From an uncultured Bacilli bacterium (GTDB taxonomy: Bacteria; Bacillota_I; Bacilli_A; RF39; UBA660), in contig CAKOWU010000007.1 of the NCBI GenBank assembly GCA_934129885.1, positions 13,566-77,565 of the forward strand: a stretch of 64,000 nucleotides of DNA. The letters run 5' to 3'. Position numbers and translations under genes: made by a program. Under the pieces are notes generated by a model that did no database searches, was not told the DNA's origin, and worked only from the letters and a program-made list of their open reading frames with translations. Every line of letters begins with the position of its first letter. The stretch's first letter is position 1. Positions 13,467 to 60,468 of the stretch are shown here, one piece after another.

Positions 13467-15443
13467 ATGTTAGAAATGGGTGATCGAATGAAAAAATACA
13501 AAAAAACAAAAATACTAATTATCTTCATTCTTTTACCCATATTAGTAATATTAAGTATTTATCTATATGCTTACATATCCCCAAAACTTTCAATAGATGG
13601 TGCGAATGGCTACTACTTATACGATAATACCCAAAAACTATATAATGGTAGTAATGAAGACTGGGCAAACCTAAACCAAATATCAAATAACTTAATAAAT
13701 GCTACCATTTCTATCGAAGATAAAAACTTTTACAAACATAAAGGCTTTGACCCCTTAAGAATAATAAAAGCCTTATTTATAAATATAAAATCAAACGCCA
13801 CCATCCAAGGTGCCTCCACAATATCCCAGCAATATTCAAAAAACCTATTTCTAGACTTCGATAAAACCTGGTCTAGAAAACTAAAAGAAGCCTGGATAAC
13901 AGTACGTCTAGAAACCCACTATACCAAAGACGAAATATTAGAAGGATATCTAAACACCATCAACTACGGTGGTATATTTGGTATCGAAAACGCCTCAAAC
14001 TATTACTTTGGTAAAAACTCGCATGACCTTACCCTCGCAGAAGCATCCATGTTAGCGGGTATCCCCAAAAACCCTAGTACCTACTCTCCACTTATAAATG
14101 AAGAAAAAGCCAAAAAAAGGCAAAAAAGCATTTTAAACTCCATGGTTATAAATGGCTATATTACAGAAGAAGACGCAAATGCAGCCTATAAAGAAAAATT
14201 AACCTATAAAAGTAAAGATGACTCTGCCAATCTAAAAATGATGATGTACTATCAGGACGCCGTTATGGATGAACTAGAATCATTAGAAGGACTTCCCGCT
14301 TCCTTTCTAGATACCGGAGGTCTTAAAATATATACAAATTTAGATACTAACGCTCAAAAGTTATTAGAAAAATCTGGGAACAAAAATATCACATCAGATG
14401 GTATTCAAATGGCTGCTGTTGCTATCGAGCCTACAACCGGTAAAGTAATAGCATTAACAGGCGGAATGGATTACAATAAAAGTGAATACAATCGTGCCAC
14501 CAAAAGCACCAGACAAGTAGGATCTACCATAAAACCTTTTCTATACTATTCAGCCCTAGAAAATGGTTTCACTCCTTCCACAACATTTACCAGTGAAAAA
14601 ACAACCTTTACATTTGATAACAATAAAACCTATACTCCTAAAAACTACAACAATGAATATCCAAACAAACAAATAAGTATGGCCGCTGCCATCGCCTATT
14701 CAGATAACATATATGCCGTAAAAACCCATCTATTTCTAGGAGAAAATAATCTCACAAACACTTTAAAAAGAGTTGGTATAACTAAAGAAGTAAAAAACCT
14801 ACCCTCACTAGCACTCGGTGCCGAAGAAATAAATCTAATGGAAATGATGGAAGGCTATACTACACTAGCAAGTGGTGGCAACAAAATTAAGCCATATTTT
14901 ATCTCCAAAGTAACCGATATGAAAGGCAATATTTTATACGAAAATACTGGGAAGCCAGAAAGCGCCCTAAACAAAAGTACCACATATATACTAAATGAAT
15001 TACTTACAACAACATACTCTAAAGAGTTTATTGACTATAACACACCAACATGCTACTCAATATCTCCTAAAATGAGTCATAAATACGCAATAAAAAGTGG
15101 TACCACTAATACAGATAACCTAATATTTGGATACAACAAAAATATATTAGTAGGAATGTGGACTGGATATGATACCAACAAAGAAGTGACAAACAAGGAC
15201 AGCGCCAACATAAAAAATGCTTGGATAGACTTTACCGAAAGTTACCTAGAAGACAAAGACAAAGAAAACGAATGGTATACCGTGCCAGAAAACGTCGTCG
15301 GTGTTGCTATTGACCCAATAAGTGGAAACATCGCAAATGCCACATCAAAAACTAAAATACTATACTATATTAAAGGAACAGAACCTAAAAAAGATAATTA
15401 TAGTCTAGAAGATACCATTCCAACAATAAAAGAGCAGAATTAG
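13467..15443 (+). CDS. class A penicillin-binding protein (glycosyltransferase + transpeptidase)
   Basis: GT51 motifs (EDKNFYKHKGFD, GASTISQQ, RKLKEAW) and transpeptidase STIKPF and KSGTT. ATG 13488 (MKKYKK) is an alternative start. Confidence 0.93.
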   Translation: MLEMGDRMKKYKKTKILIIFILLPILVILSIYLYAYISPKLSIDGANGYYLYDNTQKLYNGSNEDWANLNQISNNLINATISIEDKNFYKHKGFDPLRIIKALFINIKSNATIQGASTISQQYSKNLFLDFDKTWSRKLKEAWITVRLETHYTKDEILEGYLNTINYGGIFGIENASNYYFGKNSHDLTLAEASMLAGIPKNPSTYSPLINEEKAKKRQKSILNSMVINGYITEEDANAAYKEKLTYKSKDDSANLKMMMYYQDAVMDELESLEGLPASFLDTGGLKIYTNLDTNAQKLLEKSGNKNITSDGIQMAAVAIEPTTGKVIALTGGMDYNKSEYNRATKSTRQVGSTIKPFLYYSALENGFTPSTTFTSEKTTFTFDNNKTYTPKNYNNEYPNKQISMAAAIAYSDNIYAVKTHLFLGENNLTNTLKRVGITKEVKNLPSLALGAEEINLMEMMEGYTTLASGGNKIKPYFISKVTDMKGNILYENTGKPESALNKSTTYILNELLTTTYSKEFIDYNTPTCYSISPKMSHKYAIKSGTTNTDNLIFGYNKNILVGMWTGYDTNKEVTNKDSANIKNAWIDFTESYLEDKDKENEWYTVPENVVGVAIDPISGNIANATSKTKILYYIKGTEPKKDNYSLEDTIPTIKEQN

Positions 15444-16726
15444 TTAATATCTATCTGCTTCTTTTTTACTTTAGGAAATCCTTCCTCTAAAATAATACCA
15501 TTTGCAAAAAGTTTCAAATAACTTTCTCTATTCTCTTCATTAAAACTAGTAATACCGTATTTAGCAAGACTATCCATAAATACATTTTCTTTATCCACAC
15601 CAATACCAGTTTCAATCAAACTATTAAACATAGGGTCAACAATAAAATTTTTTGCTCCTTTTTTATCGTGGTAACAAACAGTAATATAATTATGATTTAA
15701 AACATCTTTACCTTGTTCACTAGTATTATGTAAAGCACAATCAATCCCCTCACTTACTAAACGAGAAAATATATGCAGGCTTATATCGTCATTCCATAAA
15801 TCATGACTAATACATTCTTTTTCTATTCTATTCTTCCATCCACTAGTTTGTTTTAATATTTGTTCTGGAATAGGAATATCACCATAAAGTTTTGGTTTGA
15901 TTCCTAGCTCAAAAATTGAATCACATATTTTATAATAATAAAACTGTATAATCGCCTCACAGTTATCACTATCATCTCCTATAGCCTTATTCATAGCCTT
16001 TTTATAAGCCATATCTTCATTTGTCGATATATAAATAGAAGGAAGTCCAACATTTAAAAATAGTTTATTAATAAAACCTCTAATACTCCTACCATTACCA
16101 TCCACAAACGGGTGTATCTTAATAAGTTTACATTTAAATCTTATACATGCATCAATATAATCAAATAGCTTCTCTGGCATTTCTGGTATCTGTTTAGCCA
16201 AAACCATAATATCCTCTAAATCATAATTAGCGTCCCTTAAAGCCGGCCAAATACTTAAATAATCCAAAAAATTAACCCTAGAGCCATTAATATGACAATC
16301 AGAATTTCTTGTATGACCACCAAACGTATAATCAGCATCATAATTATTATTTTGCACAATTTCTGCATCTATTACTGAATAAAGCTTTTGATGCAAATCA
16401 AGTAATGTATAAATATCAAAGTTATCATCTATTTCTGGTGAATGAATATATTCATACATTGCGGCCATGCCCTCTTTTTCCTGGTGACTATGACTACCTT
16501 CTAAAATAGCTTCGCATTCAATATAATGATTAACAAAATTATCAGTTAAATCATCCAAATTACGCTCACTCGCATCTAAAGAATAATAATAACGAATAAG
16601 ATTCTTCGGAATATCTAAATTTTCTTTTTGATATAGTATTCCCTCATCTTTCTGCTTTTCATATCCTGAAAATAACATAATAATAATATTTTCAAGTTCC
16701 CTACCACTTATTTTACCAATATTCAT
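15440..16726 (-). CDS. Fic-domain protein with canonical active-site motif
   Basis: IHPFVDGNGRSIRGF equals HPFxDGNGRxxR, embedded in a 428-aa protein with long flanking regions. Confidence 0.85.
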   Translation of the reverse strand: MNIGKISGRELENIIIMLFSGYEKQKDEGILYQKENLDIPKNLIRYYYSLDASERNLDDLTDNFVNHYIECEAILEGSHSHQEKEGMAAMYEYIHSPEIDDNFDIYTLLDLHQKLYSVIDAEIVQNNNYDADYTFGGHTRNSDCHINGSRVNFLDYLSIWPALRDANYDLEDIMVLAKQIPEMPEKLFDYIDACIRFKCKLIKIHPFVDGNGRSIRGFINKLFLNVGLPSIYISTNEDMAYKKAMNKAIGDDSDNCEAIIQFYYYKICDSIFELGIKPKLYGDIPIPEQILKQTSGWKNRIEKECISHDLWNDDISLHIFSRLVSEGIDCALHNTSEQGKDVLNHNYITVCYHDKKGAKNFIVDPMFNSLIETGIGVDKENVFMDSLAKYGITSFNEENRESYLKLFANGIILEEGFPKVKKKQIDIN

Positions 16727-17127: not shown

Positions 17128-17778
17128 CTAGTTCCTTTCTCTACCAAATATCTTTAATAATTCAATAAATAAATTAATAAAATCAAGATATAAATTAAAC
17201 GCTCCTAAAATAGCATAATTCTCATTACCATAACCAGAAGTATTCATTCTTCCAATTCGCTGCATATCATATGCAATATAACCAATAAATATTATTACAC
17301 CAATAATAGCCGTTACCATATTAAGTGTACTATTAAGCATAAAAATATTTACTACTTCAAGAACTATAATAACAAGTAATCCTATCAATAAATACGTTCC
17401 AAGCTTGTTTAAATCTACCTTAGTTTTTGAACCAATAAGTGCAAAAATACCAAATATAACAGCAGTCGCAAGTAATATATACATAACAGACGTCATTTCA
17501 AACATATAAAATATACTAGCAAACGTTAACCCTGTTAAGGCCGTATAACCGACATATAGTATTTTAGCAGTCGCTGGTTGCATCTTTTCTATTCTAATAG
17601 ACAACACAAGACACAAAACTATCTGAACTATAAATATTATCCAATAAGCTCCACCAGAAAATATCCTATTTAAAAGTTCCTCATTAGTAAGTGTATAATA
17701 ACCAGTAGCAAAAGTAATAAGTAATCCAATAAAAAGCCACATAAACACTTTTGAATAAAAATTATTCATTCTCTCCAT
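17128..17778 (-). CDS. BAX inhibitor-1/YccA family membrane protein
   Basis: Seven hydrophobic segments and a C-terminal LYLDFINLFIELLKIFG motif. Confidence 0.88.
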   Translation of the reverse strand: MERMNNFYSKVFMWLFIGLLITFATGYYTLTNEELLNRIFSGGAYWIIFIVQIVLCLVLSIRIEKMQPATAKILYVGYTALTGLTFASIFYMFEMTSVMYILLATAVIFGIFALIGSKTKVDLNKLGTYLLIGLLVIIVLEVVNIFMLNSTLNMVTAIIGVIIFIGYIAYDMQRIGRMNTSGYGNENYAILGAFNLYLDFINLFIELLKIFGRERN

Positions 17779-17868: not shown

Positions 17869-18801
17869 TTATTTTTTTAACTTTTTTGAATAAATATGAA
17901 GAAAATCTAACTTAGTTTCATCATCCTCATATATTAAATCAGATAAATCAATAGCTTTATCCAAATTTAAAGGAGCATGAGTGACATTACCTTTTTGTTT
18001 AGATATCATTCTATCTATATACTCCTCATCAAAATTAGGACTCATAGAATAATCTAATAATGATTGATAGAATTTTACAAGTTGTTGCCAATGTAAAGGC
18101 TTTAATGTTCCATTCGCACATCTAAATTCTATGGTATTTTTACCAGTTGGTTTAATTACCTCATCTCTCAAATTAGCTATATTCAAAGCCGAACTTCTAG
18201 CTAAATAAAGATAATCTAATACCGTTTTATACCTTTTACCTCTCGCACATTCTAGCAATTCCAATACAAAATCAAGGCCCATACTCACTGGAACTGAATA
18301 CCTTTCAATAGATTCTCGTGGTCCTTTACCAAAATAACCAAAATTAAATATTACATCTTCATAAGCAATCCAAAGTTTATAAAGGTTTAATAAATAATAT
18401 GGATCACTTGCAAACTCTGTTCCATCTATATGAACATGAGCCCCGCACTTATTAGTAATAAAATAATTCATCATCTTTATTTCCTTACATACATTTTTTA
18501 ATTCTTTCCACGTTTCTTTTGTATCTGATAAAATAGGTGAAACAAACTCATAGCCAATTATTTCTTCACTATAATCATTTATAGAACGGTCATTAACAAA
18601 CTGCCACGAAGTCTTATATAACTTCTTATTAGGAAATATCCTATCAGTACCATCAACTACATTTTCATCAAATTCCAAAAAATTTTCAGTATGTTCCATA
18701 CTTCCAACTTCTATTTCAACACCAAAAGATCTTTTAACACACATTATTTTTTTATATTTAGGTTTATGCTTTTGGATTTCATCTAATCTATACTTTTTCA
18801 T
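17869..18801 (-). CDS. amidoligase-like (Amidoligase_2 / glutamine-synthetase-fold) enzyme
   Basis: FGVEIEVGS, GYEFVSPIL, CGAHVHID and NTIEFRCANGTL occur in the order typical of the putative amidoligase family. Starts 55 nt downstream of the RT stop. Confidence 0.7.
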   Translation of the reverse strand: MKKYRLDEIQKHKPKYKKIMCVKRSFGVEIEVGSMEHTENFLEFDENVVDGTDRIFPNKKLYKTSWQFVNDRSINDYSEEIIGYEFVSPILSDTKETWKELKNVCKEIKMMNYFITNKCGAHVHIDGTEFASDPYYLLNLYKLWIAYEDVIFNFGYFGKGPRESIERYSVPVSMGLDFVLELLECARGKRYKTVLDYLYLARSSALNIANLRDEVIKPTGKNTIEFRCANGTLKPLHWQQLVKFYQSLLDYSMSPNFDEEYIDRMISKQKGNVTHAPLNLDKAIDLSDLIYEDDETKLDFLHIYSKKLKK

Positions 18802-18856: not shown

Positions 18857-19960
18857 TCATAACTTAAGTCTATATAAAAACTCTCTAGCATTTGCCATCA
18901 TAAAATATCCCTTATAGCTAGCCTTTACAAGTTCGTATTTTTTACCACCTTTCCTCTTTAACCTGCGTAACTTTCTTTTTATCCTTTTTTTATTTTGATT
19001 ACGAAGTAAAACAATTAACCTTTTCTCCTTTAATACAAATTTATACCCAAGAAAATCAAAACCTTTATTCAAATCATAAATTTGAGTTTTAATATTTAAT
19101 TCTAACTTAAGTTTATGTACCTCATCCCCTATTATTTTCAAAACTTCTTTTAAATACTCTTTATCATGGTGAACAATTAAAAAATCATCCATATAACGTA
19201 CATAATTTTTTATCCTTAACTTTTCCTTAATGAAATGATCAAAATCACTTAAATAATAAATTGCCAATATCTGACTAGTTTCATTCCCAATAGGTAACCC
19301 CTTACCATTTTTATATCTAGGTAAATAACTCAGTTCCTTTTTTTTCTTATCTAAATCAGTAAGACCCATTTGCGTAATACGAGCAATTTCTCTCTTAACC
19401 GCACTATCAATAAATTTATTAACCTCAACCTTCTCTGTACTTTCTATAATATTTTTTACCACGTTGTATATATCAGGATCAGTAATATCTTTTCTTAACT
19501 TATTAAGCAATATTTCATGATCAATATTATAAAAATATTTACTTATATCACACTTTAAAACATATAACTTATCAAAATTTTCTTTTTCTCTATTTATAAA
19601 CTTTTTTAAATACTCTATTCCTTTTTTAGTACCCATACCTTTCCTTGTCGCAACATTAGTATTTATAAATTTTTTTTCTAAACTAGGCAGTAAAGCATAA
19701 TGACTAATCAAATGATTAACAATTTTATCACCCAAAGTCTCACTCATAATAATACGATATTTTGGTTCCTTTATTAAAAATACATTATAATGATGGTGAT
19801 TATACTCTTTTCTTCTTAAAATATCTAATATATATACAATATTACTGGTAAAAGCTAGTTCAAATCGAACTAGCTTCTCTTTGTGACATGTATTCGTGCG
19901 AATATTCTCATACACATTTTTTATCTTATCAATAGATAGTAAATCTTCGTACTTAACCAT
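18857..19960 (-). CDS. reverse transcriptase, DGR type
   Basis: RT motifs LKCDISKYFYNIDH and YVRYMDDFLIV (YMDD), plus the DGR-specific motif-4 signature LPIGNETSQ ([I/L]GxxxSQ). Its ATG overlaps the stop of the upstream ORF (TAATG). Confidence 0.9.
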   Translation of the reverse strand: MVKYEDLLSIDKIKNVYENIRTNTCHKEKLVRFELAFTSNIVYILDILRRKEYNHHHYNVFLIKEPKYRIIMSETLGDKIVNHLISHYALLPSLEKKFINTNVATRKGMGTKKGIEYLKKFINREKENFDKLYVLKCDISKYFYNIDHEILLNKLRKDITDPDIYNVVKNIIESTEKVEVNKFIDSAVKREIARITQMGLTDLDKKKKELSYLPRYKNGKGLPIGNETSQILAIYYLSDFDHFIKEKLRIKNYVRYMDDFLIVHHDKEYLKEVLKIIGDEVHKLKLELNIKTQIYDLNKGFDFLGYKFVLKEKRLIVLLRNQNKKRIKRKLRRLKRKGGKKYELVKASYKGYFMMANAREFLYRLKL

Positions 19961-20595
19961 TACTTAACACCACTTAAATAATAACTTTTATTTGACTTAT
20001 CATATACAAAAGTTTTACTTGTACCCTTATCTAAAACATCATTTAAAGTGTCCTCATTATAGTCTCCTATCTCTTCAGATGCTAAATTATAAACCTTATC
20101 GTCCCGAGCATATCCAAACTTAACATCTACAAGTAACTGGTCAATGCTGTAACTATACCCAAATAATTTTGAAACATATTTTGTATCACAATTATCTGTT
20201 TTCTCCCTTGTAATCTTATCACCAGATAAAGTATATTTATAACCACCATAAACAAACTCATTAAAAGTTACATCTTTATTACCAGCTACTGCCTTAATAG
20301 CCTTATTATAACTTTCTACATTAATACTATCACTTAATAACTTATCATTTTTCATCATTGAAAACGCCATATAAATAATCGCATCATTTTCATTATTGGC
20401 ATTTCCTAAAGTAGTGCACTCATCAGCCATAATATTTTCATAAAGAGTATCAACGACATCATGCTTTACAGTTTCCTTCTGTGCAAGTTCATCACTATCA
20501 TCCTTCTTTACTAATACAAAGGTCAAAAATATAATAATAATTACTATAACAAATACTATAGCGATAATAACTTTCTTATTTTTTAACTTCTCCAT
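19960..20595 (-). CDS. hypothetical membrane-anchored protein between avd and RT
   Basis: 211 aa with an N-terminal TM helix (VIIAIVFVIVIIIIFLTFVLV). Overlaps the avd end by 20 nt and the RT start by 1 nt. No family recognised. Confidence 0.65.
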   Translation of the reverse strand: MEKLKNKKVIIAIVFVIVIIIIFLTFVLVKKDDSDELAQKETVKHDVVDTLYENIMADECTTLGNANNENDAIIYMAFSMMKNDKLLSDSINVESYNKAIKAVAGNKDVTFNEFVYGGYKYTLSGDKITREKTDNCDTKYVSKLFGYSYSIDQLLVDVKFGYARDDKVYNLASEEIGDYNEDTLNDVLDKGTSKTFVYDKSNKSYYLSGVK

Positions 20596-20938
20596 TTATA
20601 TCATTCCTTTTTTTTAATCCATAAATCATTTTTCTAATCTCTGTAAAAAACCTTCCTAAAACTTCAAACTGATGTTTACTAATAATTTTTTTATCATATG
20701 AAACTCTAACATAAAAATCTAACATCGATGTCTTAATGAGCATATCTTTCAAATTCTTTTCTCTAATTCTATCAGTATCATTAATACTGTATGCAAAAAC
20801 AAGTTCAACTAACTGATAACAAGCCTGCTCTATATTATTACTTAAAATCATTTCTCTTTTAGGGTAATTTATTAATAACTTGTTAAAATAATTAACTGTT
20901 TTATAAATATTATTTAGTATTTTAAAATTGTAATTCAT
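20576..20938 (-). CDS. avd: Avd-like four-helix-bundle protein (accessory variability determinant / 23S rRNA IVS protein family)
   Basis: 120 aa from ATG 20938, with AAGGTGA 5 nt upstream. Pattern YPKREMILSNNIEQACYQLVELVFAY is typical of this helical family. Sits beside a DGR-type RT. Confidence 0.72.
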   Translation of the reverse strand: MNYNFKILNNIYKTVNYFNKLLINYPKREMILSNNIEQACYQLVELVFAYSINDTDRIREKNLKDMLIKTSMLDFYVRVSYDKKIISKHQFEVLGRFFTEIRKMIYGLKKRNDINGEVKK

Positions 20939-21015
20939 AATTTCACCTTTTAATAATTGTGTGGCGAAAGGGAAAGCAATAAAATCAAAGATGACCCTAA
21001 CCCACCGATATAGCA

Positions 21016-21206
21016 ATAGTTATATAAACACACTCGCAGTTATATAACGTCTATATCATCTTTTTAGGCATATGCCAAGGAATTAACCTTGTTTCCAATC
21101 TGAATAAGATTATTGCCAAAATGGCAACTACTTCCTCTCGTTATTAGCCTTAACCAAATAACATCACGGTTCATTAGTAAATAATTACTAATCGTAGTAG
21201 GAAATT
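21016..21206 (-). promoter_or_regulatory. structured non-coding leader between the cassette array and avd
   Basis: Palindromes GGCATATGCC (21067-21076), CAAGGAATTAACCTTG (21076-21091) and TTGCCAAAATGGCAA (21113-21127). Direct repeat AGTTATATAA x2 (about 21019-21050). Function unknown. Confidence 0.3.
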
Positions 21207-21207
21207 G

Positions 21208-22234: not shown

Positions 22235-22400
22235 AATCGCACATAATTTTAGGTTAATCCTTACTCGGAAAATTTTTTTATTGCTATGAAGCAATATCCT
22301 ATATCCAAGTTTTAAATTATGGGGGCATCCTTTTTATTTATCTTGCGGTCCCCCATGCCCATTATTTATTTATCACTCTCCACACATCATATTCATCGCG

Positions 22401-22428
22401 GGACAAAAATGATGAGTCATTTTTGTCC
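22401..22428 (-). promoter_or_regulatory. perfect 12-bp stem / 4-nt loop hairpin downstream of the target gene
   Basis: GGACAAAAATGA-TGAG-TCATTTTTGTCC. No U-tract follows on either strand, so it is not a typical intrinsic terminator. Confidence 0.5.
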
Positions 22429-22455: not shown

Positions 22456-22479
22456 ATGTGGTTTCTTACGAAACCACAT
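22456..22479 (-). promoter_or_regulatory. 10-bp stem hairpin whose tetraloop contains the target-gene stop codon
   Basis: ATGTGGTTTC-TTAC-GAAACCACAT. On the coding strand the loop is GTAA (GNRA-type), and its TAA is the stop of the 975-aa ORF. Confidence 0.5.
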
Positions 22480-25393
22480 ATGGATCTTCTTTCGTACCTG
22501 TTCCAGTAAATGTCAGATTATCAGTATTCAGATTGAGAACCGGGCGGACGCCGTACCATGAATGCATACTAAAGAAATCAATAGCACCAGATACACTTAT
22601 GAAAAGCCCATAAGAGGTCTGCCAATGATCAAAGCGGGACGGCGACATGGTCCAATAGTTCGTACCACTGTATAGATAATAGAGGGAGTTCATGGCTCCT
22701 GCCATTCCCCCTGCCATATTTACTTCATCGGCTGTAATTAAACCAATAGCCTTTGTCAAAGAGCCGTTACTGATGCTATACTCATCATCTGAATTACATA
22801 ATAACGTTGGTCCCTTAGGTGAACCACCCCAATTCCAAAATCTTTCATAACCATAAATAGTAGGTGTTATTCCGTATCCTGTATTCTTATAAGTACCAGA
22901 CTGAAGTGTTGATATATTTTTATTATTACAATATGTCGTATTCTTTGAGAACTTATCTGTATAACTAGATAAATTACTATCATACCAACTATCCAAATAA
23001 GTTTTTATAGTACTATTAGTTACTTTCGCAAATGCCCCTTCTTTCGAAGTAGAACCATAGCCTTTGCCACTTACTGTCATAGATGAAGAACTCACATATT
23101 TTTTTGTATAAAACAAACGCTGACATGAATTGTTTTTATTAGTATCGAAGCAAGTATAATACCCTACCTTATCAGTGGCTAATGTTCCACTAATTAAATC
23201 ACCAGAAACCTTATAACTTTTAGTACTCTTATCGAACGTATAACTAGTTCCAAAATAATACTTTGATGTAGAAGATAAACCAGTATAATTAAATGTTAAA
23301 TCTCCACTATCAGTCTGTACAAAATTACTTTCGTCTCCATACATATACCCAACATAAGCATTATCATTAATATATGAATTAAAAGCCCTAGTACCGACCT
23401 GTCTATCACTAGTCGATTCTCCATTAGGATGTGCACTAGAGCCATCATATATCATTCTAACAGAGCCATCACCATTTACCCTTATTATTCTCCAATATTT
23501 ATTCGCAAACTTAACATAGTTACCACCAACAGAACCACGATAATAATAAGTATCCCCATCATTATCAGTACCTGCATACATGCCAACATCTTTAGTATCA
23601 TAACTTGCCATATTCTGTGTATAGTTATACTTAGTAAATGTATAAGTTTTAGTACCAGTAGTAGAATTAGTACTCGCACTTACACTAGATATCTTATACA
23701 TAGTAGACGCTATAGTATTCCAATTTTGTCCAAGCGTATAATATGTAGTACTAGTATAATCAAGATTACCAGGTTCAACAGTACTACCACCAGTTATTTG
23801 ATACATACCAGTATTAGTATTAAACGTATAACCAGTACCTATATATACATCAGATAAAGTCGTTGACCAAGTTGATAAACTAGTCGCAGCCTTTTCACTA
23901 TAACTTAATTTAGGCGAAGTACTTGTAAAACTTGGAGTACCTTTAGCCTTAATAGTACTTTTCGCAGACGTAATATCAGTATCCTTTGCCTCACTCGCAA
24001 TAACACAATCCCCTAAATCAGTAATACCATTCTTTTCACAGTAACTTTTATGCTTTATAGCAGTCGTTCCCGCTTTAGTAGAAGAAGTATTTCCCGCCTT
24101 ATCTTGAACATAAACATTAACTATATACTCACCCTCTGATAAAGACGTAAACGTATAATTAGCGTTTTCGCTAGAAGTATATGTCTGTCCACCATCTTTA
24201 CTATAATAGTAAGTATTAAGGCCACTATCCTTATCAGAAGCATTTACCTCTACCGTCATAGTATCATCATCAGGAGTAACCGTTACACTATTTACCGTTG
24301 GATCAACGTTATCTACTAAATAACTATCCGAACACTGTTCAGTACTGTTACCAACTCTGTCAGTAGCCTTAAAACATAACTTTTGCTCACTACTACTTCC
24401 ATCAAAAACATAATTAAAAGTATTATCATCCGATAAAGTAGCCTCTTTAGTAGGAGTACATGTTTCATCTGTAGTTACACAATATAAAAACGTTTTTATT
24501 TTATCATTATCTGTTACTGTATTTGTTAGGGTAACCGCCTTATTCCAATTATTATTACCTTGTATTATTTCTTTTTCTTCTATTTTTATGGTTGGTTTAG
24601 TAGTATCTATAGTTTTAGTAGTAGATGTTGATACTACAACATTACCATCTTTATCTTCAGCCTTAACATATATAGTATAGTTGGTATTAGGAGTTAGATC
24701 AGTTAAAATATAGTTATCATTCATGCTGGTATACCATTTATCATTATCGTATGAATAATAATAATTTACAGCATCTGTAGCACTTACTCTTACATTTATT
24801 CTATTTTCTTCTGGGGTTAAGGAAATACCTGCGATAGATAGGTTATCAATAGAGGGAGCATCTGCACCTGAAAATTCTGTTTTACTACCTTCTTGGACAA
24901 AATTTAAATCGGCGGTTATATCAAAGGTTTTATTACCTACACTTGTAGTTACATTTTCATCATATGTGATAGTGACATAAAAGGTTTTACTATCACCTGA
25001 TTTTAAAACATCACCAGAACTGATATCCTCTATTTTAGATTTTAGGATGCTGGAGTCATTCATATTTATTTTAATATAGTCTAAGGCAGCATTTAGTGTC
25101 CCTTCATTAGATACAGTAATGGCGTATTTAGCACTATCACCTGGAGACTTAAAATTTACATTCATAGATGCGTTAAGTTCACTAAAAGTGGCATCACTTT
25201 CTTCGGTAGCCATGCCAGTTAATTTTTCTAATTTTATATTTGTTATTACTACTTTCCATTTTGTAGAAATACTGCTGGTACCTTTAATATCAAGTTGACT
25301 GCTAAAAGCAGAATAGCCTACTGCCATCAAAGTCATAATTCCAAGCATAAAAACAATTAGATAATTTTTCCTTATCATGTCTCTTCTTCTCAT
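22466..25393 (-). CDS. large secreted/surface protein, putative DGR target (Ig/FN3-like repeats plus C-terminal 'YW..SP...GVRP' binding module)
   Basis: N-terminal signal/anchor (LIVFMLGIMTLMAVGYSAF). Repeated beta-sandwich-like units (NYTIYVKAEDKDGN, EYIVNVYVQDKAGN, KATDRVGN). GAGG RBS before ATG 25393. The C-terminal region is homologous to the 59452 paralogue. Confidence 0.85.
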   Translation of the reverse strand: MRRRDMIRKNYLIVFMLGIMTLMAVGYSAFSSQLDIKGTSSISTKWKVVITNIKLEKLTGMATEESDATFSELNASMNVNFKSPGDSAKYAITVSNEGTLNAALDYIKINMNDSSILKSKIEDISSGDVLKSGDSKTFYVTITYDENVTTSVGNKTFDITADLNFVQEGSKTEFSGADAPSIDNLSIAGISLTPEENRINVRVSATDAVNYYYSYDNDKWYTSMNDNYILTDLTPNTNYTIYVKAEDKDGNVVVSTSTTKTIDTTKPTIKIEEKEIIQGNNNWNKAVTLTNTVTDNDKIKTFLYCVTTDETCTPTKEATLSDDNTFNYVFDGSSSEQKLCFKATDRVGNSTEQCSDSYLVDNVDPTVNSVTVTPDDDTMTVEVNASDKDSGLNTYYYSKDGGQTYTSSENANYTFTSLSEGEYIVNVYVQDKAGNTSSTKAGTTAIKHKSYCEKNGITDLGDCVIASEAKDTDITSAKSTIKAKGTPSFTSTSPKLSYSEKAATSLSTWSTTLSDVYIGTGYTFNTNTGMYQITGGSTVEPGNLDYTSTTYYTLGQNWNTIASTMYKISSVSASTNSTTGTKTYTFTKYNYTQNMASYDTKDVGMYAGTDNDGDTYYYRGSVGGNYVKFANKYWRIIRVNGDGSVRMIYDGSSAHPNGESTSDRQVGTRAFNSYINDNAYVGYMYGDESNFVQTDSGDLTFNYTGLSSTSKYYFGTSYTFDKSTKSYKVSGDLISGTLATDKVGYYTCFDTNKNNSCQRLFYTKKYVSSSSMTVSGKGYGSTSKEGAFAKVTNSTIKTYLDSWYDSNLSSYTDKFSKNTTYCNNKNISTLQSGTYKNTGYGITPTIYGYERFWNWGGSPKGPTLLCNSDDEYSISNGSLTKAIGLITADEVNMAGGMAGAMNSLYYLYSGTNYWTMSPSRFDHWQTSYGLFISVSGAIDFFSMHSWYGVRPVLNLNTDNLTFTGTGTKEDPYVVS
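22543..22647 (-). other. expressed variable module (VR-like) of the surface protein
   Basis: Same two GC-rich boxes as the cassettes, 105 nt apart. Encodes MSPS...YGVRP (codons 916-950, ending 25 codons before the stop). Confidence 0.85.
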
Positions 25394-27224: not shown

Positions 27225-27576
27225 AATAATATTTTATAAGCCATATTCTGTTCCTCTTACGAGGCGACAAACATTTATCTATTAGTTTCCTAATCCCAGC
27301 CAGAATTCATTTCTTCCTTTTGAGTTCCCCTACCATAATTTGGGTTGCTTGCTTGCGGAGTTTACCACGTTTCACCTTTTTGTTTCCAAAAAATTCGTCA
27401 CTGCGGCACTTTATGTTCTAGACCATGGATAATCTTTAGGTCATCAAACGTCGTTAGCCAAAGGCTACCTCAGGTTATCTTTTTCCTGAGCACAATCACT
27501 ACGACCATCGCAGGTTCGTGCAAGTATGGACTTTCCTCTACATTACAAAGAATGCAGCGTTTGTCAAAATATTATT
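27225..27576 (-). ncRNA. rnpB: RNase P RNA (type B)
   Basis: Minus strand reads CGCTGCA..TGTAGAGGAAAGTCCATACTTGCAC, nearly as in B. subtilis rnpB, and ACAGAATATGGCTTA near the 3' end. P1 pairing is TAATATTTT (27574-27566) with AAAATATTA (27235-27227). It follows gpsB, as in Bacillus. Ends are approximate. Confidence 0.85.
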
Positions 27577-28809: not shown

Positions 28810-30543
28810 ATGGATACAATTAATAAAATTAAAAGATTAAAAAAGCCTAAAGCACCATGGCAAAAATATTATAAAAAAAATGAACGAGATATCAAAATCC
28901 AAAATAAAACTATTTATGAATATTTTGAACAGTCCGCTTTAAAATTTTATGATTTAACAGCAATTGAATACTTTGGCAAAAAAATTAGCTACTCTAACTT
29001 ACTTAAAATGGTTAATAATACAGCAGTATCTTTCAAAAACTATGGAATAGGTACAAATGACGTAGTTACTATATGTAGTGCAAATACTCCAGAAGCCATA
29101 ATTTGTTTTTACGCAATTAATAAAATAGGTGCAATTGCGAATATGATACATCCTCTATCAGCTGAAGAAGAAATTAAAAACTATTTAATAAATAACCACA
29201 CAAAGATGTTAGTGGCAATTGACGTTTGCTTTGCAAAAATCAATAACATAATAGACTTCACCAAAGTAGAAAAAACAGTTATTATCTCAGCCAAAGATTC
29301 TATGCCTTTACATTTAAAAGCTGGGTACTCGCTTACTAAAGGACGCAAAATAAAAGGCCCAAACAATAAAGATAACCATTATATACTCTGGAAAAATTTT
29401 TATAAAAAATATAAAGAAAACATTCCCACAAACAAAAGAGGTATGGATGCCCCAGCCGTTATGTTACATAGTGGCGGAACAACAGGCACTCCTAAAGGTA
29501 TTATTTTAAGTAATAAAAACCTTAATGCTCTAACAGAACAAGCAAAATTTATTTTTAAAAATGTTTCGCCTGGGGATGCTGTACTTACTATTTTACCCCT
29601 TTTCCATGGATTTGGTTTAGGCGTTTGTACCAATACACCTTTATGTTTTGGTGCAAAAGTTATTTTAGTACCACAATTTGACTCTAGAAAATTTGACATA
29701 CTTATTAATAAAACAAAACCTAATCTAATTATGGGTGTACCAACACTCTACGAGGCTTTAGTAAATTCACATAATGTCAAAAACTTAGATTTATCATATT
29801 TAAAATATGTTATTTCAGGCGGAGATACCCTTTCCGCTGGATTAAATAATAGAATTAACAAATTCTTAAAAGATCACGGCTCAAACGAAGTAGTATGCCA
29901 AGGATACGGAATGACCGAAGCACTTGCGGCAGTTGCACTAGCTTTTGGAGGTACCAATAAAGAAGGTAGTATTGGTATCCCATTCCCTGGTAATTATTTT
30001 AAAATTGTAAATCCTGATACAGGTGAAACATTAAAGCCTTACGAAGACGGCGAAATATGCATATGTGGTCCAACTGTAATGATGGGTTATTTAGACAATG
30101 AAGTCGCAACTAATGAAATCTTAAGAATTCATGATGATGGGCATCTATGGTTACACACTGGAGATATTGGCTGCATGGATAAAAATGGAATTTTCTATTA
30201 TAAACAAAGACTTAAAAGAATGATAATCTCTTCTGGATATAATGTATACCCTAGTTATATTGAAAATATTATACTCCAGCACCCCGCAGTACTTAGTTGT
30301 ACAGTTATCGGTATTCCCCATTCTTATAAAGTTGAAGTACCTAAAGCATTTATTGTACTAAAAAATGATTATATAGGCCTTAATCCTAAAGGAAGCATTA
30401 AGAGATTTTGCGAAAAACACCTATCTAAACATTCTATTCCTTATGAATTTGAATTTAGAAAAAGTTTACCTAAAACTTTAATTGGTAAAATTGATTACAG
30501 AAAATTAATGGAAGAGGAGAAAAAGAAGCATCATGATGTATAA
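28810..30543 (+). CDS. AMP-dependent acyl-CoA synthetase/ligase (long-chain fatty acid type)
   Basis: HSGGTTGTPKGI, GYGMTE and TGDIG adenylate-forming motifs. Confidence 0.88.
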   Translation: MDTINKIKRLKKPKAPWQKYYKKNERDIKIQNKTIYEYFEQSALKFYDLTAIEYFGKKISYSNLLKMVNNTAVSFKNYGIGTNDVVTICSANTPEAIICFYAINKIGAIANMIHPLSAEEEIKNYLINNHTKMLVAIDVCFAKINNIIDFTKVEKTVIISAKDSMPLHLKAGYSLTKGRKIKGPNNKDNHYILWKNFYKKYKENIPTNKRGMDAPAVMLHSGGTTGTPKGIILSNKNLNALTEQAKFIFKNVSPGDAVLTILPLFHGFGLGVCTNTPLCFGAKVILVPQFDSRKFDILINKTKPNLIMGVPTLYEALVNSHNVKNLDLSYLKYVISGGDTLSAGLNNRINKFLKDHGSNEVVCQGYGMTEALAAVALAFGGTNKEGSIGIPFPGNYFKIVNPDTGETLKPYEDGEICICGPTVMMGYLDNEVATNEILRIHDDGHLWLHTGDIGCMDKNGIFYYKQRLKRMIISSGYNVYPSYIENIILQHPAVLSCTVIGIPHSYKVEVPKAFIVLKNDYIGLNPKGSIKRFCEKHLSKHSIPYEFEFRKSLPKTLIGKIDYRKLMEEEKKKHHDV

Positions 30544-31601: not shown

Positions 31602-31688
31602 GCTTGCGTGGTGGAATTGGTAGACGCGTTGGACTCAAAATCCAATGGTAGCAATACCGTGAGGGTTCAAGTCCCTCCGCAAGCACCA
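31602..31688 (+). tRNA. tRNA-Leu (anticodon CAA)
   Basis: Acceptor GCTTGCG/CGCAAGC, anticodon loop CTCAAAA, long variable arm, GGTTCAAGTCC T-arm and encoded CCA. Confidence 0.9.
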
Positions 31689-34119: not shown

Positions 34120-34193
34120 TGCCCCATGGCCAAGTGGTAAGGCAGTGGACTCTGACTCCACGATCGCAGGTTCGAATCCTTCTGGGGCAGCCA
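34120..34193 (+). tRNA. tRNA-Gln (anticodon CTG)
   Basis: Acceptor TGCCCCA/TGGGGCA, GCCAAGTGGTAAGGC D-arm, anticodon loop CTCTGAC, GGTTCGAATCC T-arm and encoded CCA. One C-T mismatch in the T stem. Confidence 0.85.
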
Positions 34194-50683: not shown

Positions 50684-51039
50684 TGGTGGAGCCGAGGAGA
50701 TTTGAACTCCTGTCCAAATATGTTTCAAAGAAAGTCTCTACAAGTTTAGTTAGTCCATAAATGTCCTAATGAATAAAGGAACTAACTGCTAATTCATTAG
50801 TAAGCCTATATTATTCATTATTACTATTAGGCCTAGTAACAATATATCCCATTATGTATGAGTCCCTTAAAAACTTTATGGGAGAAAGTTAATAAAGAAC
50901 GCTTTGCACTATCTTAGGCAAAAGCAAGTTGGCCATTATAGCCTTTTTCGTTTCCAGTTATATTTAACTGTGTATTTTACGAGTACCCTCGGCTTGCAAC
51001 TTCAATCTCCGCATACCTGTCGAAACCAAAAACGGCCCC
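50684..51039 (-). ncRNA. ssrA: tmRNA
   Basis: 5' GGGGCCGTTTTTGGTTTCGACAGG and 3' GGAGTTCAAATCTCCTCGGCTCCACCA. Internal tag frame ...GNEKGYNGQLAFA*. Confidence 0.93.
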
Positions 51040-59451: not shown

Positions 59452-60468
59452 TTAATTCACTATACTATAAGGTTCATCTTGCGTACCACTTCCGTTTATT
59501 ACTGTATCTTTAGATAGGTATACTACTGGAAATACATTTCTTGTTGTCGCTGCATACTGTAATGCTGAACTGTCGTAGTCTATTCCAGCACCGCCAACGG
59601 TACCATTTTTTCGTACAGTCCAAACATCGGCAATAGAATTGCTCCAAGGATCTATAAGCCAATAATACACATTTTTATTTAAATAATTTTGATTTTTACA
59701 GTGAGAACCACCTTCAATCCTTGCACTATAAAGCGTTGTACAACTAGTATCTAAACTAGACTTTATATAATCAGATAAATTTAATAAGCCAACAAAACCA
59801 TTCCATGTATATTTCTTTTCTTTAGTTATTACCCCATTAATATTTAAGACATTACTACTATCGGGATATGGAACACCACCAAAGTAATATGTTTTACTAA
59901 TTATAGAAGTAGTATTTATAGTATTTAAGTATTCATTATTTAGATATGTAGTTAAACTAGCGTTTTCAGTAACCGTTCCCGTTTGTGTACCATTTACAAA
60001 TTCTGTAGATAATGCACCCCATGCATTACAACTATGATAATACCCAGAAGGATAAAAACCACAATAAGTATTGGCACTATTTAAGCTTGGACCCGTAGTA
60101 GTTGTCGTTCTTATATCAAATGCAAACTGACCAATACTATCGTTCCTCATTATTTCTATAGTATCATCACTTTCTATCGCTACAATTCTCCAAAGGTCAT
60201 TACCGAATTTTATATAATTATCCGGATTTGTACCCTTGTAAATATACCTATTTTCTTCAGTACTATCTTTCTAAAGGACATCGCCACTAATAGTAACTTT
60301 AGTCTTTAAATACTTAGAAATCTTAACTTCTTTAATATTCCCTTTAACATTTACATTTATATTTGTTTCAAAAACAGAATAGGCAATTTCAAGAGAAATA
60401 ACAACACATAAAAATAAAATAATGATAATCTTCCTAGATTTGCATGACTTTCTTCTTTTCTTTTTCAT
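59452..60468 (-). pseudogene. paralogue of the DGR target family interrupted by a single in-frame TAG
   Basis: Track ORFs 60271-60468 (signal/anchor) and 59452-60150 are in the same frame. The 40 codons between them are open (KDSTEENRYIYKGTNPDNYIKFGNDLWRIVAIE...). The only break is TAG at 60273-60271. Confidence 0.7.

Follow-up and report, generated by a model that had tools for sequence, protein, structure and literature searches.

The DNA analysed here, a 64-kb stretch from an uncultured Bacilli bacterium (29% GC; hereafter the window), carries on its minus strand a chromosomal diversity-generating retroelement (DGR) in which several templates serve a single target. Short GC-rich boxes recur along this element, and they very probably form the 5′ and 3′ ends that one variable repeat (VR) has in common with seven alternative template repeats (TRs) arranged in tandem. 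In coding sense, in which all features of the element are given below, the order on the minus strand is a target gene containing the VR, two hairpins, seven cassettes (C1 to C7), a non-coding stretch of about 270 nt, the accessory gene avd, an open reading frame (ORF) of 211 aa and a reverse transcriptase (RT) gene. The locus thus combines the features by which DGRs are recognised, namely an RT, an Avd protein, a TR/VR pair whose differences in sister strains are restricted to adenines, a VR within a coding target, a GC-rich 3′ element with differing flanks, and a stem-loop. Its departure from the canonical single-TR arrangement lies in the number of templates. In the usual description of a DGR, one template supplies one or more targets, whereas this one has seven TRs (five to eight across strains), and in at least 16 related uncultured Bacilli species of human and animal guts two to nine diverged tandem templates likewise feed one target.

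Eight units, the VR and the seven cassettes, each measure exactly 105 nt from box to box. The VR (22543-22647) ends 25 codons before the stop of a gene for a 975-aa surface protein (22466-25393), and C1 (22130-22234), C2 (21977-22081), C3 (21824-21928), C4 (21672-21776), C5 (21519-21623), C6 (21365-21469) and C7 (21208-21312) follow it with a period of about 153 nt, C1 to C6 being each succeeded by a spacer of 47-52 nt. C1 to C4 are adenine-poor; C5 has 27 adenines and is rich in AAY codons, C6 has 23, and C7, the last and most adenine-rich cassette, has 30 and includes ten Asn codons. Each module opens with TGTCGCCGTC (in the VR at 22638-22647) and closes with GGCGTCCGCC. The latter occurs eight times in the 64 kb and nowhere else even at one mismatch (0.12 copies expected by chance); the former also occurs eight times, at the module sites (C6 reads TGTCGCCGTT; 0.23 expected), with one unrelated single-mismatch match at 30046. 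The cores that are invariant across the eight units are TGTCGCCGT (9 nt) and CGGCGTCCGCC (11 nt), the second of which, with a following C in the VR, makes up the 3′ box at 22542-22553. Between the cores invariant columns are single and scattered, and the outer flanks of the VR and the cassettes are unrelated. A first-pass annotation of this DNA had described two boxes bounding a module common to the gene and seven cassettes, with two forms of the 3′ box, and both descriptions hold: the cores are all that is shared, and the 3′ box has the form GCCC in the VR, C1, C2, C6 and C7 and GCCA(C) in C3 to C5.

Pairs of cassettes differ at 28-54 of 107 positions, with a third to half of the differences at adenines, and no adenine-specific differences were found among the eight units within the window. 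DGR activity thus cannot be read from the window by itself, and evidence for it had to come from sister strains. An enrichment at adenines of the differences between A-rich and A-poor cassettes was discarded as circular, as it follows from base composition. We compared nine fetched loci of the same species from other metagenomes. At least 23 further metagenomic contigs encode an identical RT protein, and the 90% cluster of the target protein has 14 members with about eight VR states. Samples carrying the species include those behind the ENA assemblies ERZ27287288, ERZ27287243, ERZ28615169 and ERZ28615552. The cassette arrays are near-identical between strains, while the VRs differ. In the window, L001 and L087 the VR is exactly C2. 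In four strains the VR derives from C6, with changes at 8 of 23 template adenines and no other base (L002), at 10 of 23 and one other base, a G>T that creates a stop (L003), at 10 of 23 and no other (L088), and at 2 of 23 and no other (L090). C5 is the donor in L004 (12 of 27 adenines, two other bases), as it is for the VRs of proteins P0006, P0008, P0012 and P0014, and L089 has drawn on its own C7 (12 of 30 adenines, no other base). Pooled over the six strains, changes affect 54 of 149 template adenines but only 3 of the 487 other bases (Fisher p = 2.7e-34); by type, the adenine changes comprise 23 A>G, 20 A>T and 11 A>C. In each of these strains the next-best cassette lies 31-39 mismatches from the VR. 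Adenines in AAY codons are changed at a rate of 44% (40/90), compared with 22% (13/58) outside them.

Judged by sequence comparison, VR differences restricted to adenines are the signature of mutagenic retrohoming by a DGR and are not producible by recombination. Because the changes fall almost exclusively on adenines, C5, C6 and C7 are working template repeats, and for these three the strain comparison establishes that the cassettes are alternative TRs rather than silent copies of the RecA type. The view of the first-pass annotation that the boxes are ends of a retroelement kind and not RecA homology arms is thereby borne out, the locus having RT and Avd and the six strains their adenine-restricted changes; a plain replacement of cassettes gives way to template repeats subject to adenine mutagenesis. 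Its further proposal that the two forms of the 3′ box separate donors from acceptors fails, since C5 (GCCA) and C2, C6 and C7 (GCCC) all donate. The C5-derived VR retains GCCC though C5 itself has GCCA, and the flanks never move, which places the exchange points inside the boxes. From the same comparisons, the DGR identity of the locus, the feeding of one VR by several TRs, the transfer boundaries within the boxes and the use of TRs that have no adjacent copy of the downstream structured RNA (Sp, described below) can be regarded as established.

Cassette number varies between strains, from five (L003) and six (L089) through seven (the window, L001, L002, L004 and L087) to eight (L088 and L090), and deletions take out whole units. 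In the strains with eight, an extra 102-nt unit (C2alt) precedes C2; it is related to C7 and has the 5′ box GGTCGCCGTC. Arrays are intact in the strains with C5 or C6 donors, the donor sitting internally. C2 lies more than 40 mismatches from every other cassette, and strains with a C5- or C6-derived VR retain it too, which marks it as an old, stable cassette; that the window VR is identical to it is best explained by transfer in the direction from C2 to the VR. Ahead of C1, at 22235-22285, there is a partial spacer-like sequence (…ATTTTCCGAGTAAGGATTAACCTAAAATTATGTGCGATT) that looks like the remnant of a lost VR-proximal cassette. Two VRs deserve separate description. In L003 (5619-5723; proteins P0003 and P0010; 8 contigs) a GAG>TAG change at a G in the C6-derived VR shortens the target to 936 aa. 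In L004 (5314-5418) the VR is a mosaic, with a C5 body that carries the adenine changes and a last stretch of about 20 nt that is the 3′ end of C1, joined at the common TGGAATAC; this points to a switch of template or to a crossover on the upstream side of the box.

Read in the frame of the VR, none of the seven cassettes, C3 and C4 included, contains a stop codon; the count is 0 in 252 codons, whereas the other two frames have 38 in 490 (P = 2.6e-9). The spacers do contain in-frame stops, and the cassettes are not translated where they lie; a reading of the cassettes as mini-ORFs was rejected on the grounds of these stops. By this comparison of frames even the adenine-poor C1 to C4 have been kept coding-competent, presumably through their use as donors. 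Public gene calls place a 41-aa 'gene' on C3 (21824-21950, minus strand; L001:6032-6157), which begins at a chance ATG, stops in the spacer and probably reflects mis-annotation of the TR array. The repeat units are all direct, with no inverted sites, and a scan of the ten neighbouring ORFs found no recombinase; an integron or shufflon reading was rejected for want of one.

The arrangement extends well beyond this species. Sixteen other related species of gut Bacilli have arrays of 2-9 TRs, with nine in L008, eight in L058, seven in L031, six in L053, five in L060, four each in L010, L014, L039 and L052, and two in several others; relatives with a single TR are L015, L017, L019, L026, L062, L065, L078 and L079. 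Two architectures occur. In one, TR+Sp modules are repeated with a period of 335-400 nt (L058, L031, L051-53 and L060). In the other, to which the window belongs together with L008, L010, L012, L014 and L039, the arrays are compact and the internal TRs keep no more of Sp than its first ~10 nt. In 16 of 16 species one TR, and no other, matches the VR, with 6-19 adenine differences and 0-2 elsewhere at the clearest matches, and the matching TR can be anywhere in the array. It is internal and without Sp in L039 (TR 1 of 4), L008 (5 of 9), L014 (1 of 4) and L012 (1 of 2). L039 is a complete chromosome assembled from HiFi reads, which rules out an assembly artefact there. By this comparison, at least five species make use of TRs that have no Sp next to them.

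What distinguishes the acceptor from the donors lies just outside the 3′ box. Directly after it, all seven cassettes read [CA][AC][AT]TTTCC, while GGTTCTCAATCTGAATA (22525-22541) is present only at the VR. C7 continues directly into TTTCCTACTAC, the start of Sp, a structured non-coding RNA that runs from the last TR to avd (20939-21207) and holds the invariant AGATTGGAAACAAG; only C7 is followed by a full Sp. Sp is highly conserved across 20 species and forms three hairpins supported by 5-9 compensatory changes each. RNAalifold pairs the TTCC that follows the TR with the GGAA of AGATTGGAAACAAG, and this TTCC-GGAA closing pair is invariant. The Sp segment TATTCAGATTGGAAAC (21091-21106) contains the GGAAA predicted to pair with the post-cassette TTTCC, and as a whole it complements the VR flank, with 14 Watson-Crick pairs and one wobble over 16 positions. 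The predicted duplex between VR flank and Sp has an energy of -18.2 kcal/mol (z = -4.6), compared with -4.7 to -11.5 for the cassette flanks. Flank and Sp also track each other across species, CTA AAT occurring with ATTTAG, CTA GAT with ATCTAG, and CTG AAT with ATTCAG.

Two hairpins follow the VR. HP1 (GTGGTTTC-GTAA-GAAACCAC; 22458-22477; 8-bp stem, 4-nt loop) spans the target stop codon, and its palindrome, read VVS*ETT, recurs in close relatives. HP2 (GGACAAAAATGA-CTCA-TCATTTTTGTCC; 22401-22428; 12-bp stem, 4-nt loop) has no U-run after it and is present in about 18 species, 81-113 nt after the box. Its outer pairs covary, and its inner stem and loop are conserved as CAAAA(A)TGA-CTCW-TCA(T)TTTTG; this conservation of sequence suggests a recognised element and not merely a structure or a terminator. 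The DGR of Bordetella phage BPP-1 likewise has a stem-loop requirement downstream of its VR (PMC12875486).

In BPP-1, cDNA synthesis depends on base pairs that the 3′ end of the TR forms with Sp beside the priming adenosine (PMC6182149), and the RNA primer has been proposed to pair better with the initiation of mutagenic homing (IMH) element of the VR than with the corresponding IMH* of the TR, which would explain the directionality of transfer (Naorem et al., PMC5703328). In the BPP-1 sequence we find that Sp positions 48-56, AGGTGGTCA, are a perfect complement of the VR's TGACCACCT (IMH) and not of the TR's counterpart (IMH*); this 9-nt complement is seen by direct reading, the duplex energies being uninformative in that shuffles of these GC-rich sequences fold equally well. 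Matched element by element, the 3′ box here would correspond to (GC)14, the 17-nt VR flank to IMH, and the TTTCC-containing cassette flank to IMH*. The first-pass annotation had compared the 3′ box itself with IMH. The box matches the (GC)14 element instead, although a difference of the IMH/IMH* kind does exist in the next ~17 nt.

On this basis a working mechanism can be proposed. The array would be transcribed together with the downstream Sp RNA, and the RT-Avd complex would assemble on Sp. Sp would then fold back on the 3′ end of one TR, whose post-box TTTCC complements the invariant GGAAA of Sp, and an adenine-mutagenised cDNA would be made from the TR so chosen. The Sp-linked cDNA would be directed to the VR through the 16-nt complement that Sp holds of the VR-only flank GTTCTCAATCTGAATA, with the two conserved target-side hairpins perhaps helping to guide it, and would replace the 105 nt between the boxes, with exchange points within them. 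Under such a mechanism diversity would be two-tiered, with a choice among five to eight diverged 35-codon scaffolds followed by adenine mutagenesis of the chosen one. We infer from the conserved pairings and the likeness to BPP-1 that one Sp may serve several TRs by long-range fold-back and that pairing of Sp with the flank may be the targeting step, and the adenine-poor C1 to C4 would be little-mutated or fixed donors. As a bolder and tentative extension, a single Sp might dock on the TTTCC selector of every TR, C1 to C4 forming a heritable archive of past binding-site sequences that are reinstalled near-unmutated (as C2 may have been) while C5 to C7 explore new sequence. A DGR of that kind would combine memory with mutagenesis.

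Several observations weigh against parts of this account. None of the 16 adenines of C2 is changed in the window VR, for which P = 0.017 at the 22% rate of non-AAY adenines, and this transfer may have been faithful, shaped by selection for the intact sequence, an event with few mutations (compare the 2 of 23 in L090) or a conversion independent of RT. Among the approximately eight VR states there is no VR derived from C1, C3 or C4, apart from the C1-like 3′ end of one mosaic. A simple scan found no promoter upstream of C1, and a promoter and terminator scan of the array region gave nothing above chance. The correspondence of flank and Sp across species amounts to 45 matches of 102 against 34.0 in shuffled pairings (p = 0.0003), a comparison in which phylogeny is uncontrolled. 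Covariation lends no support to the TTTCC-GGAAA pairing, which is invariant, and the energy predicted for this pairing is modest.

The first alternative to be weighed concerns the course of cDNA synthesis within the same element. The RT would always start at C7 and Sp and read through the cassettes, one piece of the resulting cDNA then recombining with the VR via the boxes, or would switch templates along the way. That the internal cassettes have no Sp of their own, that the predicted pairing of TTTCC with Sp is weak, that the repeated boxes and the common TGGAATAC could support internal exchange or template switching, and that the L004 mosaic fits template switching are all in keeping with this idea. 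In BPP-1, however, cDNA synthesis stops at a defined site just upstream of the TR (PMC12875486); long non-homologous 5′ tails would need to be removed; and TTTCC(AA) is kept right after the box of every internal cassette in all species, which read-through would not need. We regard read-through as possible but rather unlikely.

A different kind of alternative is transfer by recombination, as in pilE/pilS or vlsE, with silent cassettes copied faithfully through homology or microhomology at the boxes and the RT uninvolved. The exact copy of C2 in the VR of the window and of two other assemblies would be expected of such a process, as would one mosaic VR joined at the microhomology TGGAATAC, and the cassettes are promoterless, tandem and oriented as the gene is. 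Yet 54 of the 57 differences that separate six of the eight VR states from their donors fall on template adenines, the stretches of homology span no more than 9-11 nt, and in 16 other species the arrays always stand beside RT, Avd and Sp. Recombination explains at most the single event from C2 to the VR, and as an account of the locus it is very unlikely. The resemblance to Neisseria pilE/pilS, Borrelia vlsE and Treponema tprK is nonetheless close in outcome: one expression site is accompanied by adjacent promoterless in-frame segments, a segment can be installed unchanged (as C2 in the VR), and mosaics occur. Unlike in those systems, the transferred sequence here passes through RNA and an adenine-mutagenised cDNA, the arms measure 9-11 nt, and RT, Avd and a structured RNA are linked to the array; the likeness is an analogy of outcome, not of mechanism.

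Could the boxes simply be conserved codons of the protein family, with no role at the DNA or RNA level? The 5′ box is read xTG TCG CCG TCx (M/V/L-S-P-S) and the 3′ box GGC GTC CGC CCx (G-V-R-P), and the residues YWTMSPS and G[VI]RPV are kept throughout the family, including members without a detectable TR copy in the fetched locus, as this explanation would have it. Their spelling is another matter. The boxes are written with the rarest codons of a genome of 29% GC: in window ORFs of at least 200 aa, GTC makes up 4.5% of Val, CGC 2.5% of Arg, GGC 13% of Gly, CCC 4.4% and CCG 10% of Pro, and TCG 4.7% and TCC 2.7% of Ser codons, so that GGC GTC CGC given G-V-R has a joint P of 1.4e-4. Family members linked to TRs are GC-rich at the box residues, while the seven members without a detectable TR copy in the fetched locus have AT-richer codons there (GGT GTG AGA CCT; GGT ATA AGA CCA; GGT GTT CGT CCT). 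The boxes are moreover equally conserved in the untranslated cassettes, and the transfer boundaries map to them. Conservation as codons alone is thus extremely improbable; by the evidence of codon usage, the position of the boxes is set by the protein and their spelling by the retroelement, and the boxes are under nucleotide-level selection. The first-pass annotation held that they are no coding necessity, which is right for the spelling, free as it is in the AT-richer relatives, and wrong for the positions, which the conserved SPS and GVRP residues dictate. The outcome it named as telling against its view, box sequences generally conserved as codons in genomes without RT or cassettes, is not what these relatives without a detectable TR copy present.

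It is scarcely credible that C7 is the sole template and C1 to C6 are decayed former VRs or duplicated gene ends without donor function. C7 does have the most adenines (30) and alone precedes a full Sp, and C1 to C4 are adenine-poor like diversified VRs. Outside the adenines, however, the VRs of L002, L003, L088 and L090 agree with C6 at practically every position, as that of L004 does with C5, and all five lie more than 30 mismatches from C7. All cassettes are moreover stop-free in frame, and in four other species the one TR that the VR matches apart from adenine changes is internal and has no Sp.

Set beside BPP-1 (mtd with its VR, avd, TR, Sp and brt), the tandem-TR element shares a DGR-type RT with Avd, a VR at the 3′ end of its gene, which in BPP-1 encodes a ligand-binding protein, and adenine-specific transfer from TR to VR. 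Both have a GC-rich 3′ element in the two repeats that is followed by a difference between VR (IMH) and TR (IMH*), a stem-loop after the VR, and a structured Sp whose primer-proximal segment complements sequence on the VR side. They differ in that BPP-1 has one TR, and here seven diverged tandem TRs (five to eight across strains) serve one VR; in that TR and Sp lie between avd and RT in BPP-1, whereas the TR array and Sp are upstream of avd here; and in the 47-52-nt spacers in place of an own Sp after the internal TRs, the extra 211-aa ORF and the chromosomal rather than phage-borne location. DGRs with several TRs have been reported in other forms. In the Zeta crAss-like phages Lera and ct1yV3 several TRs per RT are each paired with their own VR (PMC12386605), and the same holds for a Stenotrophomonas example, the counts of the MetaCSST survey coming from automated prediction (PMC6642488). 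Unlike in these, many TRs compete for a single VR in a compact tandem array here. The 'multiple TRs' of another report are different strains within one host (PMC4891356), and further multi-TR reports concern engineered systems. No description of tandem alternative TRs for one VR was found in open-access papers and preprints, nor are they mentioned in two surveys (PMC5758913, PMC8144416).

The arrangement multiplies the sequence space that a DGR can reach, in that whole 35-codon scaffolds are swapped on top of adenine mutagenesis, and a template needs no adjacent Sp RNA of its own. It also constrains how the RT-Avd-RNA particle chooses where to start on a template, as templates without Sp keep only TTTCC and the GC box, and how the cDNA is targeted to the VR over the templates, as the Sp complement of the VR-only flank tracks that flank across species. 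The tracking offers natural comparative support for the pairing of primer and IMH proposed for BPP-1. Choice of one unit among many has a parallel in Drosophila Dscam exon 6, where mutually exclusive exons are chosen by a docking site and selector sequences. By analogy only, pairing between the GGAAA region of Sp and a particular copy of the repeated TTTCC could pick one unit; the Dscam case concerns splicing, unlike the priming of reverse transcription here, where the pairing is short and predicted. The array also offers DGR-based directed evolution a natural model, and a compact one, for multiplexing templates. Such loci will be mis-annotated by automated DGR finders built on the expectation of one TR, just as gene callers already place a 41-aa 'gene' in a cassette.

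The RT (367 aa; 18857-19960) has the motifs LPIGNETSQ and catalytic YMDD, which fit the [I/L/V]GxxxSQ of DGR motif 4 and YxDD, and matches Pfam RVT_1 at 1.6e-18; a search of the NCBIfam library gave no DGR-RT match and other RT families only below threshold. It has 4430 homologues at E<=1e-20, and more than 450 RT-linked loci were identified in GTDB genomes. Related RTs are 47-64% identical and come from metagenome-assembled uncultured gut Bacilli or 'Tenericutes', with sources that include Firmicutes bacterium CAG:822 and Mycoplasma sp. CAG:776. The avd gene (20576-20938, 120 aa from the ATG at 20938) matches Pfam bAvd (4.8e-12, 46.8 bits against a cut-off of 40) and NCBIfam DivGenRetAVD at 1.7e-11, under that model's cut-off, and wherever a related locus still includes the upstream flank, an Avd homologue adjoins RT (84 tblastn matches). 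Between the two genes, overlapping both, lies the 211-aa ORF (19960-20595), which has an N-terminal transmembrane helix and for which no family match was found. By tblastn, an equivalent in this position is confined to the closest sub-clade (about 15 species; 33-51% identity) and was not found in more distant members of the DGR family; from this distribution it may be a lineage-specific DGR accessory protein. Several relatives have, between Sp and avd, a 131-aa protein with MutS domain I (Pfam 1.5e-06, above cut-off; L010:4025-4420, and at the same position in L009, L011, L012, L015, L016 and L018). This gene is absent at that position in the window, where Sp continues straight into avd.

The target protein begins with an N-terminal membrane anchor or signal, continues with Ig-like/PKD-like repeats (Pfam Big_13/PKD) and ends in a domain of the form YWTMSPS-(variable)-GVRPVLNL, with a weak, sub-threshold match of its C-terminus to Pfam DUF6273; it has 4200 homologues. 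The AlphaFold model of the last 344 aa has a pLDDT of 73.6. A Foldseek search of this C-terminus against the PDB gave nothing below E = 0.85, phmmer found no match among PDB sequences, and a C-type-lectin fold was not confirmed by AlphaFold/Foldseek, phmmer or Pfam. The VR 3′ box together with its flank, searched as an exact pattern in JGI metagenomes, gave 0 matches. A paralogue-like protein of 232 aa (59452-60150, minus strand; ending ...YYWLIDPWS...NVFPVVYL...GSGTQDEPY) is collinear with the target C-terminus at weak similarity (BLASTP E = 0.09) and has no repeat copies nearby. The first-pass annotation had noted that it encodes the same fold without boxes. The boxes are indeed absent, with AAT GTA TTT CCA at the equivalent place; the shared fold is plausible, not shown at this E value.

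The surroundings of the element are chromosomal and include a penicillin-binding protein gene, feoB, the class B RNase P RNA (27232-27572, minus strand), a tmRNA with the tag GNEKGYNGQLAFA (50684-51039, minus strand), tRNA-Leu(CAA) (31602-31688, plus strand) and tRNA-Gln(CTG) (34120-34193, plus strand). The RNase P RNA, tmRNA and tRNA genes confirm a Bacillota-type chromosome, not a phage. GC skew is positive on the strand bearing the target gene, from which the gene appears to be co-directional with replication, the orientation that is favoured for retrohoming (PMC12875486). Directly 3′ of RT, all on the minus strand, are genes for an Amidoligase_2 protein (17869-18801), a Bax1-I family membrane protein (17128-17778) and a Fic-domain protein (15440-16726), and their order is unchanged in all sister strains.

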